DNA of 16,805 bases from the IMG/VR virus record IMGVR_UViG_2974602345_000001, positions 141,332 to 158,136 of that record. One strand, written 5' to 3'. Below, piece after piece: positions 1,453 to 13,077 of the stretch. The notes under the pieces were generated by a model. That model searched no databases and had not been told where the DNA came from. It saw nothing but the letters and a program-made list of their open reading frames with translations. The DNA is from a virus. Lineage: Duplodnaviria > Heunggongvirae > Uroviricota > Caudoviricetes. The translations under genes were made by a program, and so were the position numbers. How positions within the stretch are numbered: the stretch's first letter is position 1; each line of letters begins with the position of its first letter.

Positions 1453-3435
1453 ATGACGGCAGATAAGACAAAGGTAGTTCAGCGTGGGATCAAAGGGTCG
1501 AAACTGACCCACCCTGAACTAGATGGTAACTTCCAGGAGCTGGTCAACGTCATTGACGATGTTGCAGCTATTCCAAACACATTTGCGACCATTGCTTCGC
1601 TTGAGGTTGTAGAGACGGCTCTCCAATCAAAAACAGAGCAGACTGACATTGATCAGTCCATTGATGCACTTGAAACCAACCTTAGTGCAACTGATGGTGC
1701 AACGCGGGTGGGTCACGGGGCTGGTACTGTAGCAGCAGCACTCGATGCAGTGACTGACGTTACTGACTCGCTGACGTCGGACACTGGATCTGACGTCGTC
1801 AAGATCCGCGGGCGAACTATCACTGAGCGCTTTGATGACGCCCTTAACGTTCTTGACTTTGTTCAAAAGCCCTACACGGATACATCAAAGCATCAAGCGG
1901 GTATTGTAGCAGCAATTGCAGCCGCCAAGCTTCAAAACAAAGAACTGTATTGGCCTATGCTGCTCACTAGCACTGAAGCGTTGGCTGACTTGCATACAGT
2001 TCGTCATCGTGGTCCTGGTGGAATTGTAGCTGGCTCTGACACGTTCTACGTTGACCCAACACCTACACAATCAAACAAGCTGTACATGGCCCCTAGTGGC
2101 ACGGGTGATGGTATCACCAGCGCACGACCGTTGAATGGGTTTACTGGTACAATAAGCGTCCTTCAGCAGTATGCACCTCTTTGCACTCGTTGGGATGTTG
2201 TGGGTTCGGCGGGCACTTACATTGAGACTGTGGTTATCCCCGACTGGATTGCAATCGGTCGCAGCTACCTTGCGTTCACCTTCCCTGCACCAGTGGGTGA
2301 TCGTGCAGAGCCCGCTACCTACCCTGCAATCCTGAGTGGTAGCGGCTTGACTGCACTGCAAGGCTTCCTGTCAGGTCTTGGTAACCGGATCAGTATCAGC
2401 AACCTCGCCGTCAACAACTGGTACGATTCAGCACTGACAAACGTCAACCAGGTGCGTCGTGGCTTGAGTGTAAGCTCAGGTAGCTTTGTCTACCTTGTCA
2501 ACTGCGCAATGACAAACAACGGCTTGGCAAACGTGTCTGCTCTACCAGGTGGTACTGCTGTAGTCACAGGTGGCGTATACGATGGCGCTCGGTACGGCTT
2601 CGACAACACAGGTGGCCGCTTGTCGTTCAGTGCTACCACTACCACATACTCGGTAGTTCGAAACGCACTGGAATACGGCCTGTATCAGAAGCACGATTCG
2701 TCTACAGTGATGGACTACACTGAGTTCAGAAACTGCGGTAAGATTGCAGCTGCGGTAAGCTACGGTGCAGCTATCTTCGCGTACAAGTCGAACGCATCCG
2801 TTGACACCCGTGGCGTGAAGTTCTACGCCAACAACATCTGCTGGAACGTCCGTGGCGGCTTTGTTGCTGACAACCCTGGTATTCCTGATGTGTACGGTAC
2901 TGGTGCTGACGCCAACGCTCGCCGTTATCTGTGCCGTGGCGGTGGTCGTGACGACATCGACACCTATGAAACCAACTCAGTGAATGACATCACCAAGCGC
3001 TTTGGCGGTGGTTCGACTACCAGTGCAACCGATGTTCTGTTGCTTGATGCGATTGCTACTACCCGTGAAGGCTACCTGGCCAACACTGACCAATGCTTGA
3101 AAATGCAGCTGTTCTGCCGTGCCCAAACGGGTGACGCGCTGATCACTCCTCTGCTTCGCCATGCAGGTGGCACTGTTTCACTGGGTACCTATCGCATTAC
3201 TGCAGGCAAGTACGGTGAGATTCGTCTGGTCATTCGACCAACCAGTGGACAGACTACCCTCCAAGTCAACTTTGCGTGCACAGACGCAATTCAAAACTTG
3301 GGTGCAGCAGTTGGTCAGATCATCTCATCTACTGTGGACTTGAAAACTGTCAGTCTGTCAGTCGAGGTCAATGGTCGCGCAGAGGGCGGTGGTACGGCAT
3401 CTTTGATGACATGTATCGTAGAAAAGAGCGGTTGA
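1453..3435 (+). CDS. Tailspike/receptor-binding protein 1 (anchor-type N-terminus, beta-helix-like body, C-terminal beta-sandwich-like domain)
   Basis: 660 aa. N-terminal KGSKLTHPELDGNF motif typical of phage tail-fibre attachment segments, GA..VGHG neck, ALNVLDF pectate-lyase-3-like start, G/N/T-rich repetitive beta body. RBS AAGG upstream. Confidence 0.8.
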   Translation: MTADKTKVVQRGIKGSKLTHPELDGNFQELVNVIDDVAAIPNTFATIASLEVVETALQSKTEQTDIDQSIDALETNLSATDGATRVGHGAGTVAAALDAVTDVTDSLTSDTGSDVVKIRGRTITERFDDALNVLDFVQKPYTDTSKHQAGIVAAIAAAKLQNKELYWPMLLTSTEALADLHTVRHRGPGGIVAGSDTFYVDPTPTQSNKLYMAPSGTGDGITSARPLNGFTGTISVLQQYAPLCTRWDVVGSAGTYIETVVIPDWIAIGRSYLAFTFPAPVGDRAEPATYPAILSGSGLTALQGFLSGLGNRISISNLAVNNWYDSALTNVNQVRRGLSVSSGSFVYLVNCAMTNNGLANVSALPGGTAVVTGGVYDGARYGFDNTGGRLSFSATTTTYSVVRNALEYGLYQKHDSSTVMDYTEFRNCGKIAAAVSYGAAIFAYKSNASVDTRGVKFYANNICWNVRGGFVADNPGIPDVYGTGADANARRYLCRGGGRDDIDTYETNSVNDITKRFGGGSTTSATDVLLLDAIATTREGYLANTDQCLKMQLFCRAQTGDALITPLLRHAGGTVSLGTYRITAGKYGEIRLVIRPTSGQTTLQVNFACTDAIQNLGAAVGQIISSTVDLKTVSLSVEVNGRAEGGGTASLMTCIVEKSG

Positions 3436-3438
3436 CCC

Positions 3439-3465
3439 AAAGCCCTCCTAGGAGGGCTTTTCTTT
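3439..3465 (+). terminator. Intrinsic terminator after TSP1
   Basis: Perfect 22-bp palindrome AAAGCCCTCCTAGGAGGGCTTT (3439-3460) followed by TCTTT, 3 nt after the stop codon. Confidence 0.9.
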
Positions 3466-3471
3466 GACTAT

Positions 3472-3479
3472 CATAAATA
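3472..3479 (+). promoter_or_regulatory. Putative T4-type late promoter CATAAATA
   Basis: 7/8 match to the T4 late consensus TATAAATA, 37 nt before the TSP2 ATG, conserved in three cassettes. Confidence 0.8.
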
Positions 3480-3516
3480 GACGCATATACGAATTGTCTT
3501 CAAGAGAAGGACTGAC

Positions 3517-5292
3517 ATGTCAATTATCAAGGTTAACCAAATTCAGGACATCGAGGGCGAAAACGGGATCAACGTCAGTGATCTTGTAAGTAAGATTACC
3601 CTCGCCTCGAGTACCGGATCTTCACAGATTGGTCACGGTGTAGGTACTGTTGAAGATGCGTTGGATGCTGTAAAGAGTGTTACTGACTCACTCACATCCA
3701 GTACAGGATCTAACTCAATCATGTACAAGGGTAGGTCAGTTTCTGATCGATTGGGTGATAGTGTAAGTGTAAAGGACCATGGTGCCGTAGGTAACGGGAC
3801 GGATGCAACTGCAGCGTTCAACGCTGCTCTGGCTGTCAGCTCGTCTGTGTATGTACCTGAAGGTGTGTACTTGATCGGAGACGTTGAGCTGAACGGTAAA
3901 CGTTTGTACGGTAATGGCACCATACTCAAGAAATCAACAGCGCAGCAATCCATCATTGTGAAGGGTAACGGCTCTGAAGTGATTGGCTTGAAGTTCAAGA
4001 GCCAATCTGCCAACGGACAACCTAACACTGACATTCGGCTTGGAGATGGTGCCAAAAACGTTCGCATCAAAGGGAACCACTTTGCGGGTAGAACCTACAG
4101 TGCAATCTACGGTGCTGACGACACTACAACGACGCTCTACACCAACCCAGTAGACGGTGTTGTAATTGAAGGTAACGTGTTTGATGCAGAGGACAAGGTG
4201 AACAACCTCAGGTATGCTCGCCACATCTACCTGCGTGAGGTTAAGAACCTGGTTGTTACGGGCAACTTGTTCAGAAACAGCTCATTTGACTCTATTCGTC
4301 TACGGGGCAGGAACGGGTACTGCATCATAACATCCAACAACTTCACCGACATTGGTTTGTTCCCGCCACCTGACGACCAAACCCGCGATGCGGTTGATAC
4401 ATACTGGGGCGGCGATCTGTTGATTGTGTCAAACAACACAATTAGCGGGGTTGGATACATTGGCTTGGACTTGAAGAACTCGGCCCGTAGTGGTGTTGAT
4501 GATGCTGGAGTTGTGGGTGAACGTACTCGTCAGTTCATAGTAACAGGGAACATCATTGACAAGACTTGGATGGCAGGTATTGTTATCTCTGGTGATGACT
4601 CATCTACTCTGCCACTCCATAGTTGCATTGTCCATGGTAACATTATCCGCAGGTTTAACCAGTCAGCCACTGGTACCGGTACTGGCCAATCAGGGATAAA
4701 CATAAAGGCGTTGGCTCGCCATGTGAAGATCTCAACGAACATCATCCAGGAGGGTAATGCTCGTGGCGTGTTTGTTGAGGGGACGACTGCGTACTTGGAC
4801 CTTGTGTTCAACACGATCATCAACAACGCTGAGGCTGGTGCTGTATTGACTGATGTTCAAGACATGAAGATCATCGGTAACACTATGGCCCAAGACACAA
4901 ACGTTCCGAATAGCGGTCAGCAGGCAACAGGGTTGATTGTGTCAAACCCATCCAACCTCGCTAAGACTATGATCATGGCGTTCAACACGTTCAAAGACAA
5001 CGGGACGTTGCAAGTGTCTCTGAACCCGTCAGGGAACAGGTTTACCGGGTTTGCACAAATCATTGGTAACATCGAGTCGGGCCCAGGAAAAATGTCTGAC
5101 AGCTACCCTAGAACAGGGCACTCGAGGCGTATCATGCACGGTACTGCGATTCCAACTTCAGCAGACGGAACCTTTGAAGTGGGTGACATTCTGTACAACG
5201 TTGCACCCGTTGCTGGTGGGTTCATGGGCTGGTCTTGCGTTACTGCTGGGTCACCTGGCACGTGGAAGACGTTCGGTGCCATCAGCGCTTGA
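3517..5292 (+). CDS. Tailspike 2, right-handed beta-helix depolymerase-like
   Basis: 591 aa. VSVKDHGAVGNGTDATAAFNAALAVSSSVYVPEGVY (Pectate_lyase_3-like), repeated IxGN/VxNN beta-helix rungs (IEGNVF, VTGNLF, VSNNTI, VTGNII, VHGNII), C-terminal PT..GTF.VGD..YN..P..G..GW.C...GSPGTW motif. RBS AAGGA. Confidence 0.9.
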   Translation: MSIIKVNQIQDIEGENGINVSDLVSKITLASSTGSSQIGHGVGTVEDALDAVKSVTDSLTSSTGSNSIMYKGRSVSDRLGDSVSVKDHGAVGNGTDATAAFNAALAVSSSVYVPEGVYLIGDVELNGKRLYGNGTILKKSTAQQSIIVKGNGSEVIGLKFKSQSANGQPNTDIRLGDGAKNVRIKGNHFAGRTYSAIYGADDTTTTLYTNPVDGVVIEGNVFDAEDKVNNLRYARHIYLREVKNLVVTGNLFRNSSFDSIRLRGRNGYCIITSNNFTDIGLFPPPDDQTRDAVDTYWGGDLLIVSNNTISGVGYIGLDLKNSARSGVDDAGVVGERTRQFIVTGNIIDKTWMAGIVISGDDSSTLPLHSCIVHGNIIRRFNQSATGTGTGQSGINIKALARHVKISTNIIQEGNARGVFVEGTTAYLDLVFNTIINNAEAGAVLTDVQDMKIIGNTMAQDTNVPNSGQQATGLIVSNPSNLAKTMIMAFNTFKDNGTLQVSLNPSGNRFTGFAQIIGNIESGPGKMSDSYPRTGHSRRIMHGTAIPTSADGTFEVGDILYNVAPVAGGFMGWSCVTAGSPGTWKTFGAISA

Positions 5293-5295
5293 CTC

Positions 5296-5322
5296 AAAGC
5301 CCTCCTAGGAGGGCTTTTCTTT
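5296..5322 (+). terminator. Intrinsic terminator after TSP2
   Basis: Same 22-bp palindrome as 3439-3460 (5296-5317) plus T-rich tail. Confidence 0.9.
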
Positions 5323-5328
5323 GACTAT

Positions 5329-5336
5329 CATAAATA
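5329..5336 (+). promoter_or_regulatory. Putative T4-type late promoter CATAAATA
   Basis: Same motif as 3472 and 7329; 34 nt before the TSP3 ATG. Confidence 0.8.
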
Positions 5337-5370
5337 GAACACATAGTGCATTATCATAGAAGGGCATGCA

Positions 5371-7290
5371 ATGTCAATCACCAGAACTAACACGTTGGCT
5401 GATGTGAATGGTAACAACTCCATTAATGTCAGCGAACTGGCGAGTAAAGTCGTCATGAGTGCGCCTGAAGGTGCATCAAAGATCGGGTACGGCAATCGAA
5501 CTCAAGAGCAAAAGAACGGTGACGTACTCTCAGTTCGTGATTATATCACAACCGCAGTCAACGGCGTGACCAGCAACCAGGCGGGCATTGTTGCAGCCGT
5601 TGCAGCTGCTAAGTCTTCAGGAGCAAGTCTCCATTGGCCTGCCGGCACATATGTGTCCACCGCAAGTATTCCTGACTTCCACTCAGTTCGCCACACAGGT
5701 CCTGGCGTTGTAAAACGCGGTACAAACCTGTTCAGCATCAGTCAGTTTGACTCAGCAATGAACACGCTGTTCGTTAGCACTTCCGGGTTGACTACCAATG
5801 ACGGCCTTTCATCGACTGAGGCAATGCTTAGCCCTAACGCTGCCGTTAACCTGTGGGGTGCAAAGTACGCTGCAACTGCATGCGGGCCATGGAAAATCAA
5901 AATCGCAGCAGGTACCTACTTTGAGAGTATCATTGCTCAAGGGTACCAGTCAAACAAAGAGATTTTCCTTGAGGGTGAGTATGACGCAGTCAACCAGGTC
6001 CCACTCACGATCATGGATGGCTCTGTTGGAGCGACAAACAGTGGGATCATCTTCACTACCTACGGGTGGGTGAACTGCAAATGGATACTTTGCCAAAACT
6101 TCACTACCGTTGGCGCAGGCGGTTTCAACATCGGCAACTATGGTCGCATGACTATTGACACTTGCCATGCGTACAACAACAACCTGGTTGGCTTCAGTGC
6201 AGCTCAAGCAGCTGACTTGCGCATCATTGGTCGTTGCTATATCAAGCCGTCAGCAAACGGCACTGGTGTTACCTACTACCGGCAGTGCACAGGTAGCTGG
6301 TCTGATGCCACGGGTGAGATCATTATCGATGGTTTCAACAACGCAGCGACCACTGGTGTTCTGGTTCGTGACAACTCGTATGTGGTTGCAGGGTGCAAAC
6401 TGACGGTCCGGAACTGCACATCGCAAGCAGTTTGGTTGCGTCGCCATTCGTACCTTGAAGTGCGTGATTACGAGATCACCAACAACAACATCGCGTTCGA
6501 CCTGCGTGACTTGTCCCTGCTTGCACCAAACGGCGGCACTCAAGTTCTGACGGGCAACACTCAAGATTATGCTTACAAGAACTTCTCACTGCCATGGGAC
6601 ACTGCTTCAAACATGGCTATTGGTGCAGATGGTCCATCTGTTCAAGCACCTTCTGCTGGTAACTACGCACTGGTAGTTTCAGGCAAAAGCCAAGTGGGCC
6701 AACAGTTCCTGACTGATGCATCAACTTCAACGATCAACATTGATTTCAACAAGAAAGGCAGTTTGGTCTACGCGCAAACTGACAACACTTTGCGGATTGC
6801 GCTTAACAGTGCAGACGCTTATCGCTTTGCAGCTTCAGTGTTCTACCCTACTGTTGACAACGCAAAAACACTGGGTGGTTCATCATTCAGGTGGTCAACC
6901 ATCTACGCCGGTACTAGTACTATCAACACCTCGGATGAAACCGCTAAGCAGCAGATCAAGCCGATTGACGACGCGTGTCTGCGCGCATGGGCCAACGTTG
7001 AATACGTCCAGTACAAATTCAACGACGCAGTTGAAGCAAAGGGCGATGGTGCTCGTTGGCACTTCGGTCTGATTGCTCAGCGCGTCAAGAAGGCGTTTGA
7101 GGATGAAGGTCTCAATGCGTTCGACTACGGTCTGCTCTGCTATGACGAGTGGGACGAACAGCCGGAAGAGGTTGACGAAGAAGGTAACATCATCCAAGCA
7201 TACCTTGCAGCGGGCAGCCGTTACGGCATCCGTTACGAGGAAGCGCTTGCACTTGAGTGCGCCTATCTGCGTAGTCTGTTGAAGAAGTAA
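5371..7290 (+). CDS. Tailspike/tail fibre 3 with C-terminal intramolecular chaperone (Peptidase_S74-like autocleaving domain)
   Basis: 639 aa. PTVDNAKTLGGSSFRWSTIYAGTSTINTS|D (Ser521 at 6931-6933) followed by WHFGLIAQRV..AF..EGL...DYGLLCYDEW and RYGIRYEEAL, classic endosialidase-type chaperone motifs. Beta-helix-like middle region. Confidence 0.9.
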   Translation: MSITRTNTLADVNGNNSINVSELASKVVMSAPEGASKIGYGNRTQEQKNGDVLSVRDYITTAVNGVTSNQAGIVAAVAAAKSSGASLHWPAGTYVSTASIPDFHSVRHTGPGVVKRGTNLFSISQFDSAMNTLFVSTSGLTTNDGLSSTEAMLSPNAAVNLWGAKYAATACGPWKIKIAAGTYFESIIAQGYQSNKEIFLEGEYDAVNQVPLTIMDGSVGATNSGIIFTTYGWVNCKWILCQNFTTVGAGGFNIGNYGRMTIDTCHAYNNNLVGFSAAQAADLRIIGRCYIKPSANGTGVTYYRQCTGSWSDATGEIIIDGFNNAATTGVLVRDNSYVVAGCKLTVRNCTSQAVWLRRHSYLEVRDYEITNNNIAFDLRDLSLLAPNGGTQVLTGNTQDYAYKNFSLPWDTASNMAIGADGPSVQAPSAGNYALVVSGKSQVGQQFLTDASTSTINIDFNKKGSLVYAQTDNTLRIALNSADAYRFAASVFYPTVDNAKTLGGSSFRWSTIYAGTSTINTSDETAKQQIKPIDDACLRAWANVEYVQYKFNDAVEAKGDGARWHFGLIAQRVKKAFEDEGLNAFDYGLLCYDEWDEQPEEVDEEGNIIQAYLAAGSRYGIRYEEALALECAYLRSLLKK

Positions 7291-7293
7291 ACC

Positions 7294-7322
7294 AATCCCG
7301 CCCTAACCGGCGGGATTTCTTT
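7294..7322 (+). terminator. Intrinsic terminator after TSP3
   Basis: Stem AATCCCGCC (7294-7302) / GGCGGGATT (7309-7317), 6-nt loop, then TCTTT. Different hairpin from copies A/B. Confidence 0.85.
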
Positions 7323-7378
7323 GACTATCATAAATAGACGTATATGAATTATCTTCAAGAGAAGGACTGTCATGTCAA
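7316..7378 (+). repeat. Intergenic cassette copy C (promoter + leader)
   Basis: TTTCTTTGACTATCATAAATAGACG...GAATT.TCTTCAAGAGAAGGACTG.CATGTCAA is near-identical to 3459-3523. Confidence 0.9.
7329..7336 (+). promoter_or_regulatory. Putative T4-type late promoter CATAAATA
   Basis: Third identical copy; 35 nt before the TSP4 ATG. Confidence 0.8.
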
Positions 7379-9351
7379 CAGTTAACGTCAACAAAATCGC
7401 TGAGCGGACCGGCACAAACCCGATCAGCGTGAAGGACATTGCCAACAAGGTTACTTTGGCTGCGTCTGATGGTGCATCAAAGATCGGTTTCGGTTCAGGC
7501 ACCGTAGCAGATGAGCTGGTTAAAATCAAGGATACCTTGGTAACGCTTGAGGCGAACATCTGGAACTATGCGTCGCTCATCACAGAAAAGCCTTCATTGC
7601 TCGACCCTACCACTTGGGACTGGACTCCAGCTTTCCAAGCTGCTGCCAACCAGGGTGGGTCACTGTACGTCCCATCGTCGACTTACATCATCAGTCACGT
7701 ACAGGTGCCTAAGTCGTTCTTCATCCACGCAGCTGCAGGCACTGTGTTTTTCCAGAAGAACAACACCATTGTAGCCAAGACTCACTGGACGCCTGGCGTT
7801 GGTATGTTTGAGCTGTCGACTGATGGGATCAGCTTTGGCGTTGATGGTTTTTGGACGTTTGACGGTAACTCGGCAAACCAGGTTCAAATTGAGCCAGCAG
7901 GTACGTTCGTCAAGTGCATGCCGTTCAACCCTGCTACCAACACGAAGCCGACCACCATTGAACTCCACAACGGTACCTTCATCAATGGCTCTTACAGCTA
8001 TGTGATTGCGCGTGGTGATGCACTTCTGCGTCGGTTCGTGACAAAGGTCCACCTGCATAACTGCACCATGTATGACACCCTCTACGGTGTCGGTAAGGGT
8101 GACCCTGCTACTCCGTCGGCTCTTGGGTTCTCGCCTACCTATGTCATGGCTCTCGACTATGTGATCCTGACCACGCACAACCTGCGTATGTTCTTCGAGA
8201 AGCCGGTCAGCCTTGGTAAGTACGCAGCCACTGGTGTTCTGGGCACCTACTACGGTCAGGACTACGCCAACTCGGGCCAAGCACTGATCATGCTCGAAGG
8301 TATCACCTACTGCAAAGGCATGGGTCGGGGTGGTGTGAACTGGGACGGCGATCCACTGGGTCTGAACGGCATTGGCGTAATCGACGTCTACGGCAACGGT
8401 GATACTCTTCACGTTGAGCACGTTGTAGCTGAAGACTGCCACGTACAGGTCATCCGTGCAAAGGCATCGCTGAACAAGTTTCACGTTGGCAAGTTCGACC
8501 TGAATAACTGTGATGGCGGTATCCAGGTGTCTCCGTCGAGCACTGGTCCTGCAACTACCAGCGTTTACATCGGTCCAGGTGAAGCGACTGCATGCGCTGT
8601 GCCTATTGTTGAAGTAACCGGCACCACTACTTCTGACACCATTCAGAAGGCGGTTATTAACGGCGTATTCGTTAAGGGCGGAACAAACCCCAACGCTCGT
8701 ACCGCTGTAGGCTCTATCCACGTGAGAAACGTGATTGACGTGGCGATCAACGACGTCACTGTGCGGAACTGCCCTCTGTACGGTATCAGTGCAGTTGACA
8801 TCACTCGACTGTCCATCACAAACCCTGCCGTTCGAAACGTGGTTGGCGGTGTTGGTATCTGGATTTCAGGTGGTGTTGACATTGATATCAAAGGCGGTAC
8901 TGTTGCAAGTGCAACAGCTGGTGCAGCCATCAACATGGCAAGCGTCACGGGTGATATCCGTGTTGACCACGTTAAGACTTCGGGCACAAAGGACTACTCG
9001 ATTCTCATCAACAGCGCTTCAGCCAAGTCTGTCGTGATTGTGAACTGCCGAGCGGAGACTGTGTCCGACCTCAGCCGTGGTTATTACTCAGCTGTCGGGT
9101 TTGACCTGCTGGCGGGTAACAAAATCATCTCGGGCGTCACTACTCCGTGGGTCACACCAGCTGGCTTCCGGAACATCATTCGTGACAACTCGTGGGATCC
9201 ATACTTGGGTTGGGGTGGTGCAGCTGCTCCTACTACAGGTACCTACAACCGAGGCGACATCCTGCTCAACCAGTTCCCAACATCAGGGACACCAACTGGT
9301 TTCAGGTGCACCGTTGCAGGCTCACCTGGTACATGGGAAGCCTTCACCTAA
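7372..9351 (+). CDS. Tailspike 4, beta-helix depolymerase-like
   Basis: 659 aa. DWTPAFQAAANQGGSLYVPSSTYII start of a pectate-lyase-like domain, V/I-rich beta-helix rungs, C-terminal APTTGTYNRGD...GSPGTW motif homologous to TSP2. RBS AAGGA. Confidence 0.85.
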   Translation: MSTVNVNKIAERTGTNPISVKDIANKVTLAASDGASKIGFGSGTVADELVKIKDTLVTLEANIWNYASLITEKPSLLDPTTWDWTPAFQAAANQGGSLYVPSSTYIISHVQVPKSFFIHAAAGTVFFQKNNTIVAKTHWTPGVGMFELSTDGISFGVDGFWTFDGNSANQVQIEPAGTFVKCMPFNPATNTKPTTIELHNGTFINGSYSYVIARGDALLRRFVTKVHLHNCTMYDTLYGVGKGDPATPSALGFSPTYVMALDYVILTTHNLRMFFEKPVSLGKYAATGVLGTYYGQDYANSGQALIMLEGITYCKGMGRGGVNWDGDPLGLNGIGVIDVYGNGDTLHVEHVVAEDCHVQVIRAKASLNKFHVGKFDLNNCDGGIQVSPSSTGPATTSVYIGPGEATACAVPIVEVTGTTTSDTIQKAVINGVFVKGGTNPNARTAVGSIHVRNVIDVAINDVTVRNCPLYGISAVDITRLSITNPAVRNVVGGVGIWISGGVDIDIKGGTVASATAGAAINMASVTGDIRVDHVKTSGTKDYSILINSASAKSVVIVNCRAETVSDLSRGYYSAVGFDLLAGNKIISGVTTPWVTPAGFRNIIRDNSWDPYLGWGGAAAPTTGTYNRGDILLNQFPTSGTPTGFRCTVAGSPGTWEAFT

Positions 9352-9352
9352 C

Positions 9353-9381
9353 AAAAAGCCCTCTCACGAGGGCTTTTCTTT
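9353..9381. terminator. Bidirectional intrinsic terminator between late (+) and early (-) arms
   Basis: AAAAGCCCTC (9354-9363), loop TCAC, GAGGGCTTTT (9368-9377). A-tract on the left and T-tract on the right, between convergent genes. Confidence 0.9.
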
Positions 9382-9588
9382 GAGCTCAATGAGCCGTTGC
9401 TCAGGGTCGTATGTGTAGGCTTCAGGCCACTTGCCAGGAACCAACTTCATCTTGGTCCTGTATGGCATCTCAAGCTCTTCAGCGTGGCGCAGCAAGCGAT
9501 TGACCTCCATGCCTATACGCAGTGGGTCTTGGTTGCACAAGTCCACGATGCGGTTGAGGACCGCCACGCTGACCCGATACGACTTCAC
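9364..9588 (-). CDS. Hypothetical phage protein (74 aa)
   Basis: GTG start overlaps the previous stop (GTGA). The stop codon lies in the terminator loop. Confidence 0.7.
   Translation of the reverse strand: MKSYRVSVAVLNRIVDLCNQDPLRIGMEVNRLLRHAEELEMPYRTKMKLVPGKWPEAYTYDPEQRLIELKEKPS
9368..9383 (+). repeat. Truncated cassette copy D
   Basis: GAGGGCTTTTCTTTGA is identical (16 bp) to 3452-3467 and 5309-5324. Similarity stops just before CTATCATAAATA. Confidence 0.75.
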
Positions 9589-12097: not shown

Positions 12098-12304
12098 TCA
12101 GTCAACACGACCGCCGTTTTTGTCAACCGCCTGGCGCATGAAGCTTTCAATGGTTGGATGTTGAGGCTCAACCATCGCAGCTTGACACAGGCTCAGGTAG
12201 TCGTTCCACACCGCCACGCAGTAGCGATGAAACGTGGTGTGTCCCTGCTTGTCATTGTTGAACTGAGCAAGCAGGTAGTTCTTCATACGATACGGTTTCA
12301 TCAC
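12098..12304 (-). CDS. Hypothetical phage protein (68 aa)
   Basis: GTGA overlap with the upstream gene. Confidence 0.7.
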   Translation of the reverse strand: MMKPYRMKNYLLAQFNNDKQGHTTFHRYCVAVWNDYLSLCQAAMVEPQHPTIESFMRQAVDKNGGRVD

Positions 12305-13077
12305 ATCCCCTTGATGGCGTCAGTGTTGAGTTTGTGGCTGGTAGCCAGGTCACACAGCATGACGCGCAGATCATCAGGGCCCATGAAGTTGTCATGCACG
12401 CCTTGCAGACCGGCAATCAGCCCTTTGTGAGTATCAGGCACCAGCTCACGGTCAATCAGAGCGTACCAGCCCGACATACCATGCTTGTCCATCTCAGGCT
12501 TGTACTCGTGGTCAGCGATCAGAGCACCTGCAGCGCACTTCATGCCGTTCTTGCCACGGTACACGCAGCGCACGCCGCCGTTGACATCAGTGCTCTGCTC
12601 CTTCTGAGTCAGCAGATGGACAGCCGCTTGATCGAAGACTTCCTGCGCAGTCTTGTACTCCAGGTTGGCCAGGGTGACCTTGTCGAGCACGTCAGTGTTC
12701 AGGCCAAACTCTTCCGCAGTCCGGTGCAGTTCACGCTTGAAGTTGATCGGTTCATGATCGTCGTGAACGTGCTGCAGTGCACGGATGAGGCGGTCATGTG
12801 GAGTAGATGGAACCAGCTTGCGAGTGATCAAGGATGGCCACGACGTGCCACGCACGGCATCCTCTTTGTCCATCTCAGGCTTGTATTCATCGTCGGCGAT
12901 CAGACAGCCTGCTGCGCACTTGGTACCGTTTTCACCACGATACATGCAGTCATTGATGGTAGTACCTTCACGCACTTTCTGAGCCTTGGCGTTCTGGTGC
13001 AGGAGGTGTGCGGCTACCTGATCGAAGACTTGTTGGGCGGTTGCAGCTGCGAGGTTAGCGAGAGTGATTTTCTTCAT
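12301..13077 (-). CDS. Protein made of two tandem copies of a ~127-aa Cys/His-motif domain
   Basis: TLANL...TAQ.VFDQ...HLL.Q...C.YRG.NG.KCAAG.LIAD.EYKPEMDK...LQ.VHD...LNTD occurs twice. A 20-bp identical DNA repeat lies at 12485-12504 and 12866-12885 (381 nt apart). Confidence 0.9.
   Translation of the reverse strand: MKKITLANLAAATAQQVFDQVAAHLLHQNAKAQKVREGTTINDCMYRGENGTKCAAGCLIADDEYKPEMDKEDAVRGTSWPSLITRKLVPSTPHDRLIRALQHVHDDHEPINFKRELHRTAEEFGLNTDVLDKVTLANLEYKTAQEVFDQAAVHLLTQKEQSTDVNGGVRCVYRGKNGMKCAAGALIADHEYKPEMDKHGMSGWYALIDRELVPDTHKGLIAGLQGVHDNFMGPDDLRVMLCDLATSHKLNTDAIKGM

Follow-up and report, generated by a model that had tools for sequence, protein, structure and literature searches.

Repeated terminator-late-promoter cassettes as candidate recombination joints in the tailspike locus of Pseudomonas putida phage pf16

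Composite units that combine a stem-loop with a promoter, the promoter-early stem-loop (PeSL) cassettes, are known in T4-type phages (RB49/phi1, T4/PST and KVP40/nt-1; PMC2839356, PMC4122927). PeSLs recombine across patches of <50 bp, with circles found at ~1e-5 per virion (PMC2839356), and their authors described such units as 'usually not' present in structural regions (PMC2839356, PMC4122927). Clusters of four tailspike genes have been described in the Ackermannviridae, for example in CBA120, Vi01 and AV101 (PMC8432352, PMC11414711), and the swapping of C-terminal specificity determinants on an N-terminal anchor is documented for receptor-binding proteins of Klebsiella phages (PMC8262889) and as protein-fragment shuffling (PMC10684548). 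In phages with several receptor-binding proteins, the set of spikes fixes the host range. To our knowledge, the growth, shrinkage and reshuffling of spike arrays are poorly documented beyond the Ackermannviridae and the jumbo Klebsiella phages. Here, we describe an array of four tailspike genes (TSP1 to TSP4) and the repeated intergenic cassettes between them in a 16,805-nt stretch of DNA, hereafter the window, which forms the final 16.8 kb of a 158,136-bp virus genome (IMG/VR record IMGVR_UViG_2974602345_000001; G+C 52.65%). In size and base composition, this genome matches the T4-like Pseudomonas putida phage pf16.

We assign a probability of roughly 0.7 to the reading that this region is the tailspike locus of pf16 and that its cassettes act as recombination joints, through which spikes are gained, lost and swapped. 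An earlier note on the same DNA had proposed a late-gene cassette for the exchange of host-range modules. On an evolutionary scale, the mosaic halves of the cassettes, a matching junction in a natural relative and the variable number of spike genes bear this out, but the cassette is not the sole joint. The anatomy and the comparative evidence are solid; present-day exchange in pf16 is a prediction of the model, which specifies junction molecules that can be sought.

The cassettes of the spike array

Four large open reading frames (ORFs) lie on the + strand, 3' of a baseplate wedge gene. Together with the elements between them, they are arranged as follows (window coordinates):

1414-1419, + strand: predicted slot 1 late promoter core TAAATA, overlapping the wedge stop codon, 33 nt to the ATG
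1453-3435, + strand: TSP1, 660 aa; long N-terminal adaptor (aa 1 to ~102); PHROG tail spike family
3436-3516, + strand: cassette A; hairpin 1 (3439-3460), T-tract, 23-bp core (3459-3481), TAAATA (3474-3479), leader type 1 with a Shine-Dalgarno sequence
3517-5292, + strand: TSP2, 591 aa, beta-helix spike; Pfam Beta_helix and NosD
5293-5370, + strand: cassette B; hairpin 1 (5296-5317) identical to that of A, core (5316-5338), TAAATA (5331-5336), unrelated leader type 2
5371-7290, + strand: TSP3, 639 aa, spike or fibre with a C-terminal S74 intramolecular chaperone; Pfam Peptidase_S74 and End_tail_spike
7291-7371, + strand: cassette C; different hairpin 2 (7294-7317), same core (7316-7338), TAAATA (7331-7336), leader type 1
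7372-9351, + strand: TSP4, 659 aa, beta-helix spike; N- and C-terminal flanks in common with TSP2
9352-9384, either strand: predicted bidirectional terminator D, promoter-less; stem of hairpin 1 with another loop (9354-9377), same T-tract

The terminator of one gene and the promoter of the next are fused into an intergenic cassette of ~80 bp, at the centre of which lies an 18-23 bp core comprising the end of the T-tract, GACTATCA and TAAATAGA. The hairpin is followed within 14 nt by TAAATA and then by a leader of 33-37 nt and the ATG; measured from the end of TAAATA, the ATG lies at 33, 37, 34 and 35 nt for TSP1 to TSP4, respectively. The four hairpins have folding energies of -14.8 to -16.3 kcal/mol (z -2.7 to -5.0), and D, which is conserved in the relative L064 (L numbers denote the sequences compared), folds on either strand (-15.3 and -17.3 kcal/mol). 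Folding of positions 1400-1452 yielded no stable hairpin, indicating that no terminator separates the wedge gene from TSP1. The overlap of the first promoter with the wedge stop codon is likewise found in L005, L010, L013 and L064.

Cassettes A (3438-3481) and B (5295-5338) are identical over 44 bp, the identity of A and C spans 25 bp, and the same 23-mer is present in A, B and C (at 3459, 5316 and 7316). Terminator D (9368-9383) retains 16 bp and has the stem of A and B. These cassette repeats (44, 25 and 23 bp) are the longest exact repeats of the array, followed by one of 18 bp, and their copies are spaced by 1857 bp (A-B) and 2000 bp (B-C), 3857 bp in total. Outside of its three array sites, the 23-mer is absent from the 158-kb genome, even with up to 3 mismatches allowed. 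The mapping of TAAATA, the folding of hairpins and the comparison of repeats are in agreement with the earlier note, which had described the near-constant promoter distances, a terminator for each spike gene, the 44-bp identity of A and B, the common core of B and C, the 16 bp kept in D and the spacings of the copies. The note had also considered that the 44-mer might be a generic motif spread over the genome; the extended core proved to be confined to the array.

Mosaic cassettes and breakpoints among relatives

To compare the left and right parts of the cassettes separately, we split them at the core; with the scoring used, ~60% identity is near random. The left halves (hairpin and T-tract) of A and B are 96% identical, and those of A and C or B and C only ~60%. 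For the right halves (leader), the similarity is distributed differently: A and C, the leaders of which the earlier note had correctly described as nearly alike, are 86% identical (30/35), and A and B 60% (21/35, near random). The core itself matches at 23/23 positions in all pairs of A, B and C. Simple duplication followed by divergence cannot produce such discordant halves; they require one or more exchanges that break within the core or right beside it.

Protein-guided searches yielded relatives in which the locus has the same flanks, namely the wedge gene on the left and a reverse-strand arm on the right. An exact scan of viral and metagenome contigs for a 21-nt core gave no match, and a scan for a 17-nt terminator tail matched mostly unrelated contigs. 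The closest relative found is L064, a Logan contig with 86% amino acid identity in the wedge protein and ~80% nucleotide identity in the flanks. It carries four spikes, terminator D, a convergent 74-aa ORF and the pf16 core before genes 2, 3 and 4. In its cassette B', a TSP1-type body is followed by hairpin 1, the core and a leader that is 91% identical to the pf16 leader C, and the first 90 nt of the next ORF are 84% identical to TSP4. A three-way alignment groups L064 with the TSP1-end/A side of pf16 to the left of the core (69/88 matching positions, versus 39/94 for the C side) and with the C side to its right (97/116, versus 75/117 for the A side), with a 20-bp core that is identical in all three sequences. 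By this alignment, B' is the predicted A x C junction, relative to which pf16 has an extra 3857 bp (TSP2 and TSP3); in pf16, this segment is bounded by direct core repeats. The earlier note had anticipated an A x C crossover removing 3857 bp, and L064 carries the matching junction.

Receptor-binding bodies also occur in different slots. The TSP1 body (aa 103-660) is 84.8% identical over 558 aa to that of L064 gene 2, which stands in a different slot and has a TSP2-type N-terminus. The body of L005 gene 1 corresponds to that of L013 gene 2 (84% aa identity), which in L013 comes after an additional first spike. Similarly, L065 gene 5 and L066 gene 4 are 90.6% identical and are preceded by different numbers of spikes, two in one and one in the other; the boundaries of this homology lie 44 nt into an ORF and 8-10 nt past the stop codon. 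L005 and L010, the flanks of which are 97% identical, have unrelated gene 2 bodies, with the homology stopping ~110 nt into the gene 2 ORF and resuming 4-11 nt past the stop codon.

The number of genes at the locus varies as follows:

0 genes: L008, L009
1 gene: L007, L049, L067
2 genes: L005, L010, L070
3 genes: L013, L069
4 genes: pf16, L064
5 genes: L068
At least 6 genes: L065, L066

With gene numbers from 0 to at least 6, the locus constitutes a hyperplastic region, made up mostly of late receptor-binding genes. In L069 (11515-12773), a GH19 glycosidase and two small ORFs come after the wedge gene in place of spikes, and each of these small ORFs is preceded by a repeated, early-type PeSL-like cassette with a TTTACA-type promoter and a GTGTGAAG/CTTCACAC stem.

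The hairpins show a history of their own. The 16-bp palindromic centre of hairpin 1 is exactly conserved in pf16 (three copies), L064, L065 and L066, at wedge identities of 70-86%. In L065 and L066, hairpin 1 is the terminal terminator of the array, which suggests that the internal copies in A and B descend from the array end. Cassette C of pf16 and its counterpart C' in L064 have unrelated hairpins and keep the core. L065 and L066, both Logan contigs, stop exactly within hairpin 1 (L065:19696-19733; L066:20081-20117), as would be expected if this sequence were repeated or variable in the respective phage populations. Two terminator pairs have the same stem with loops that are exact reverse complements, AACTAA/TTAGTT (L005:13357-13432 versus L010:13358-13432) and CTTACCA/TGGTAAG (L065:15238-15317 versus L065:17118-17205); strand switching or an inversion inside the hairpin would be expected to produce such flipped loops.

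The four pf16 proteins have beta-helix or related bodies with known tailspike homology. Beta-helix signatures are present in TSP2, TSP3 and TSP4 (Pfam), with the S74 chaperone domain in TSP3 in addition, and TSP1 and TSP3 fall into PHROG tail spike or tail fibre families. An N-terminal module of ~60 aa is common to all four spikes, to which TSP1 adds a 48-aa extension that is found in relatives at the start of their first spike genes. TSP2 and TSP4 share homologous N- and C-terminal flanks around different cores, and additional segments are common to TSP1 and TSP3 as well as to TSP2 and TSP4. We rejected a duplication of a two-gene unit (TSP1-TSP2 giving rise to TSP3-TSP4), which these segments weakly favour and the hairpin relationships contradict.

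For each spike body, the closest homologue is a tailspike from an unrelated Pseudomonas phage, in most cases a P. putida isolate. Over aa 122-660, TSP1 shares 60.6% identity with the tail spike of the P. putida podovirus AF and 52% with that of the T7-like phi15; a study cited in the pf16 genome paper credits, in its title, the AF tail spikes with 'EPS-degrading activity' (PMC5587285). TSP2 (aa 57-590) has 65% identity to a spike that an E217/PB1-like Pseudomonas myovirus contig encodes within its baseplate module, TSP3 a partial match (49.6%) to the tailspikes of P. putida phages Dolphis and Jeremy, and TSP4 (aa 29-658) 46% identity to those of P. putida phages Bosely and Stalingrad.

The array is flanked by the following genes:

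1-1416, + strand: baseplate wedge gene, 3' part (523 aa in full); conserved left flank; Pfam Baseplate_wedge and PHROG baseplate wedge
9364-9588, - strand: convergent 74-aa ORF, the first of the reverse arm; right flank of the array, with its stop codon within the loop of D

Wedge homologues with 35-86% identity stand before the variable locus in every relative. Among isolates, the wedge protein has only distant homologues (22-38% identity), in cyanophages, Caulobacter phage Cr30 and Sinorhizobium, Stenotrophomonas and Xanthomonas phages. The Ackermannviridae context invoked in the earlier note was not borne out: none of the 335 phage records matched by the wedge protein in tblastn belongs to this family, and we reject membership in it, as the backbone is that of the T4-like pf16 lineage. 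A megablast search of the whole window against the phage collection, from which the records of the genome itself had possibly been left out, gave no match. Phage pf16 has a circularly permuted genome and has been described as T4-like but peripheral, near the cyanophages and the Schizo- and Exo-T-even groups (PMC5587285), and its genome paper does not discuss the spike array (PMC5587285).

The 74-aa ORF is found at the equivalent place in L064 (19581-19805), where the surrounding region has 79% nucleotide identity. The reverse complement of hairpin 1 of A and B would encode the same final residues as this ORF (KEKPS, followed by a stop). At most, this suggests that hairpin 1 of A and B derives, as a relic, from the end of the convergent gene (3' end); the position of hairpin 1 as terminal terminator in L065 and L066 agrees with such an origin. 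Further along the reverse arm, a 258-aa ORF (12301-13077, - strand) contains an internal tandem duplication (12485-12568/12866-12949 and 12602-12651/12992-13041), the halves of which have 81% and 70% nucleotide identity; units related to these repeats give separate matches in relatives.

Promoter elements, proposed mechanism and rival explanations

TAAATA occurs 31 times on both strands of the genome, compared to ~56 copies expected from composition. Twenty of the 31 are followed, at a distance of 20-50 nt, by the ATG of an ORF with at least 50 aa (random positions: 13.6%), and the mode of this distance is 33-35 nt. By these measures, TAAATA behaves as a putative T4-type late promoter with a shortened consensus, and it marks ~20-26 candidate late promoters in pf16. 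The pf16 paper recognised as late promoters only three perfect TATAAATA sites and reported a late sigma factor, gp98 (PMC5587285). The features of a T4-type late promoter are all in place, that is, a TATAAATA-like -10 element at a fixed distance, no -35 element and a gp55-type sigma factor, and activity is predicted. The 'weaker promoter motif' of that paper (13 instances; PMC5587285) corresponds to the hairpin and T-tract, TTTTCTTTGA. A hairpin directly before a late promoter is a frequent layout in pf16, with each site having its own sequence. The parts are therefore generic, and only the spike array has the extended repeat.

On the + strand of the cassettes, a consensus scan revealed no sigma-70-type site. 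The core motif TTGACT was considered as the -35 element of a sigma-70 promoter and rejected, as no -10 hexamer ending in T lies at 16-18 nt. On the minus strand, a near-consensus sigma-70 promoter (window 5350-5377; TTGACA, 16 nt, GATAAT; 11/12 matches) overlies the TSP3 start and reads towards TSP2, entering it at its 3' end; in the pf16 paper, it is listed without a downstream gene (PMC5587285). Several other late promoters of pf16 carry the sequence TGATTAG (genome 65263, 66091, 71136, 82184 (minus strand), and ~30032 with a 2-nt offset). They have exactly 16 nt from TTGATT to TAAATA and stand right behind a terminator T-tract. TGATTAG, which is absent from the spike cassettes, may serve these promoters as an upstream element.

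Hairpin 1, together with T-tract and GACTA tail, occurs once more at L060:1045-1125 (genome 75344-75424), matching A and B over 33 nt with 1 mismatch. This copy, at genome 75368, sits between a 107-aa ORF and an ORF for a GIY-YIG (Seg-like) homing endonuclease, which has its own TAAATA promoter; the neighbouring ORFs lie at L060 394-1011 (the endonuclease, genome 74693-75310) and 1097-1420, both on the minus strand.

Promoter and terminator activity of the cassettes is predicted from their sequence, and we infer the following mechanism of recombination. Each spike gene would form a self-contained late unit, composed of a TAAATA promoter, a ~35-nt leader with ribosome-binding site, the ORF and an intrinsic terminator, with the promoter presumably being read by the gp55-like sigma factor of the phage. 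As each gene is insulated by its cassette, the addition or removal of a gene would leave its neighbours undisturbed. The repeated scaffold, made up of hairpin, core and leader plus the initial 40-110 nt of the ORF, which encode a common N-terminal module, would provide homology for the recombination-dependent replication machinery, with crossovers occurring inside a single genome or, in co-infections, between relatives. Crossovers in the core would lead to gain or loss of whole spike genes, and a crossover in the N-terminal module on the left combined with one at the stop codon/hairpin boundary on the right would replace the receptor-binding body, new bodies being drawn from a shared pool of P. 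putida phage tailspikes. Recombination is efficient in T4-type phages, and by analogy with the PeSLs, the 44-bp and 23-25-bp repeats should on rare occasions give rise to loss of 1857, 2000 or 3857 bp and to the reciprocal duplications.

The rival explanation that survives best is that the cassettes are regulatory punctuation only. The repeats would then result from purifying selection and an old tandem duplication, and turnover would proceed through the N-terminal module or through illegitimate joins at gene ends. We regard this as unlikely overall, although several observations favour it and weigh against cassettes acting as joints. Six cassettes in pf16 and L064 keep the same 18-20 nt core, and invariance in six cassettes at ~80% genome identity speaks for functional selection and against recent copying as the only cause. 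Functional selection probably explains core invariance best, and a shared core is not itself proof of crossing over. L065 and L066 have a repeated cassette of their own, with an analogous but different core that is fixed (invariant T-tract, GAGC and TAAATA), and a terminator followed by a late promoter is a common layout elsewhere in pf16. Moreover, in three relative pairs (L005/L010, L005/L013 and L065/L066), the left breakpoint lies 44-110 nt inside the ORF and the right one 4-11 nt after the stop codon, outside of the promoter core. Additional points tell against the cassette as a joint. Several array genes of distant clade members (~65% wedge identity) have no such cassettes; pf16 and L064 differ by several rearrangements at ~80% identity, with the A x C junction being one step among them; and repeats of 23-44 bp are at the low end of the homology that T4-type recombination uses efficiently, according to Singer 1982 as cited in PMC2839356.

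Other features are difficult to reconcile with mere punctuation. The N-terminal coding regions of pf16 are only 51-67% identical, with no exact match longer than 18 bp; within one genome, homologous exchange is therefore not possible there, whereas the cassettes can support it. The switch of nearest relative falls exactly across the core, both within pf16 and between pf16 and L064. Furthermore, hairpin 1 is identical, including its loop, behind two unrelated bodies, which terminator function does not require. The breakpoints are of three kinds, implying that the homology scaffold exceeds the promoter cassette: it starts with the hairpin, includes core and leader and reaches into the N-terminal module. 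The earlier note had looked to related genomes for changes in receptor-binding gene number with breakpoints in the cassette: the number indeed varies and the pf16/L064 breakpoint is in the core, but the other breakpoints lie in N-terminal coding sequence or at the stop codon.

According to a second rival explanation, a dedicated sequence-specific recombinase or homing-type endonuclease acts at hairpin 1 and/or the core, in the manner of an integron-style platform. The palindromic centre of hairpin 1 that is exact in pf16, L064, L065 and L066 despite 70-86% wedge identity, the flipped loops of hairpin copies and the additional hairpin 1 copy with the same tail next to the GIY-YIG endonuclease gene of pf16 would fit such a system, and the PeSL authors raised the same possibility for PeSL stem-loops (PMC2839356). 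However, a recombinase gene was found neither within the array nor next to it, C and L064 C' keep the core with unrelated hairpins, the breakpoints are distributed over three types of site and the position of the endonuclease gene may be a coincidence. We consider this explanation very improbable. The more specific proposal that the core and hairpin 1 together form the recognition site of a phage nuclease or recombinase, for example the GIY-YIG enzyme, in an integron-like platform for host-range genes, is a very improbable one as well. Finally, it is hardly conceivable that the repeat is due to chance or to an artefact of assembly or annotation, as we looked for evidence supporting this and found none, the copies, three or four in number, are in register with the ends of the genes, the same architecture recurs in independently assembled relatives from other samples, and the coverage of the published genome, built from 1.93 million pairs of 300-bp MiSeq reads, was very high (PMC5587285).

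Comparison with known systems

The pf16 array resembles the Ackermannviridae clusters in its layout, with up to four tandem spike genes that have conserved N-termini. In both cases, tandem tailspikes stand beside baseplate genes and combine conserved N-terminal modules with exchangeable bodies, and host range follows from the spike set. The resemblance is one of layout only. The two differ in lineage and in spike number, which reaches up to four in the Ackermannviridae and ranges from 0 to at least 6 genes in the pf16 clade. In addition, the word 'intergenic' does not occur in the papers on Ackermannviridae that were consulted, so that these describe no repeated intergenic cassette as a joint.

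The exchange of specificity bodies on N-terminal anchors is a second parallel, since left breakpoints in the pf16 clade lie at the end of the conserved N-terminal module and bodies are common to unrelated phages of the same host. In contrast to simple anchor swapping, the right joint is defined too (stop codon, hairpin or core), and the scaffold is repeated along the array, so that a body can change slot and whole genes can be gained or lost. A further lead comes from the podoviruses SP6, K1-5 and K1E, which belong to the T7 supergroup, use promoters of their own RNA polymerase and have two slots. Scholl and colleagues (2001-2004) reportedly found that a conserved promoter/terminator-like intergenic region flanks the interchangeable tailspikes of these phages and proposed it as a site of cassette exchange.

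The pf16 locus offers a cultivable T4-like phage that infects a laboratory host and has four spikes from the P. putida phage pool, a defined scaffold and a natural relative with a core-bounded two-gene indel. The closest likeness is to the PeSLs. As in these, a stem-loop terminator and a promoter are combined in direct repeats between genes, in a hyperplastic region of a T4-like genome, and junctions of indels or replacements between relatives fall inside the unit. The pf16 cassettes are composite units of stem-loop, promoter, ribosome-binding site and ATG, and the switch between pf16 and L064 across the 20-bp core, which corresponds to the 3857-bp two-gene indel, is such an internal junction. 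Unlike PeSLs, which have sigma-70-type early promoters and flank small ORFans in many copies over the early regions, the pf16 cassettes have a late TAAATA promoter and no sigma-70-like early one. They are present in three copies and a promoter-less fourth at one locus, to which the core is confined, and flank virion spike genes of ~2 kb (591-660 aa). Their homology unit, moreover, reaches into the shared N-terminal coding module. From their sequence and arrangement, the pf16 cassettes thus appear to be a late-promoter, receptor-binding-gene form of the PeSL concept, which would extend the idea from early ORFans to late virion genes, where its authors had thought such cassettes to be rare.

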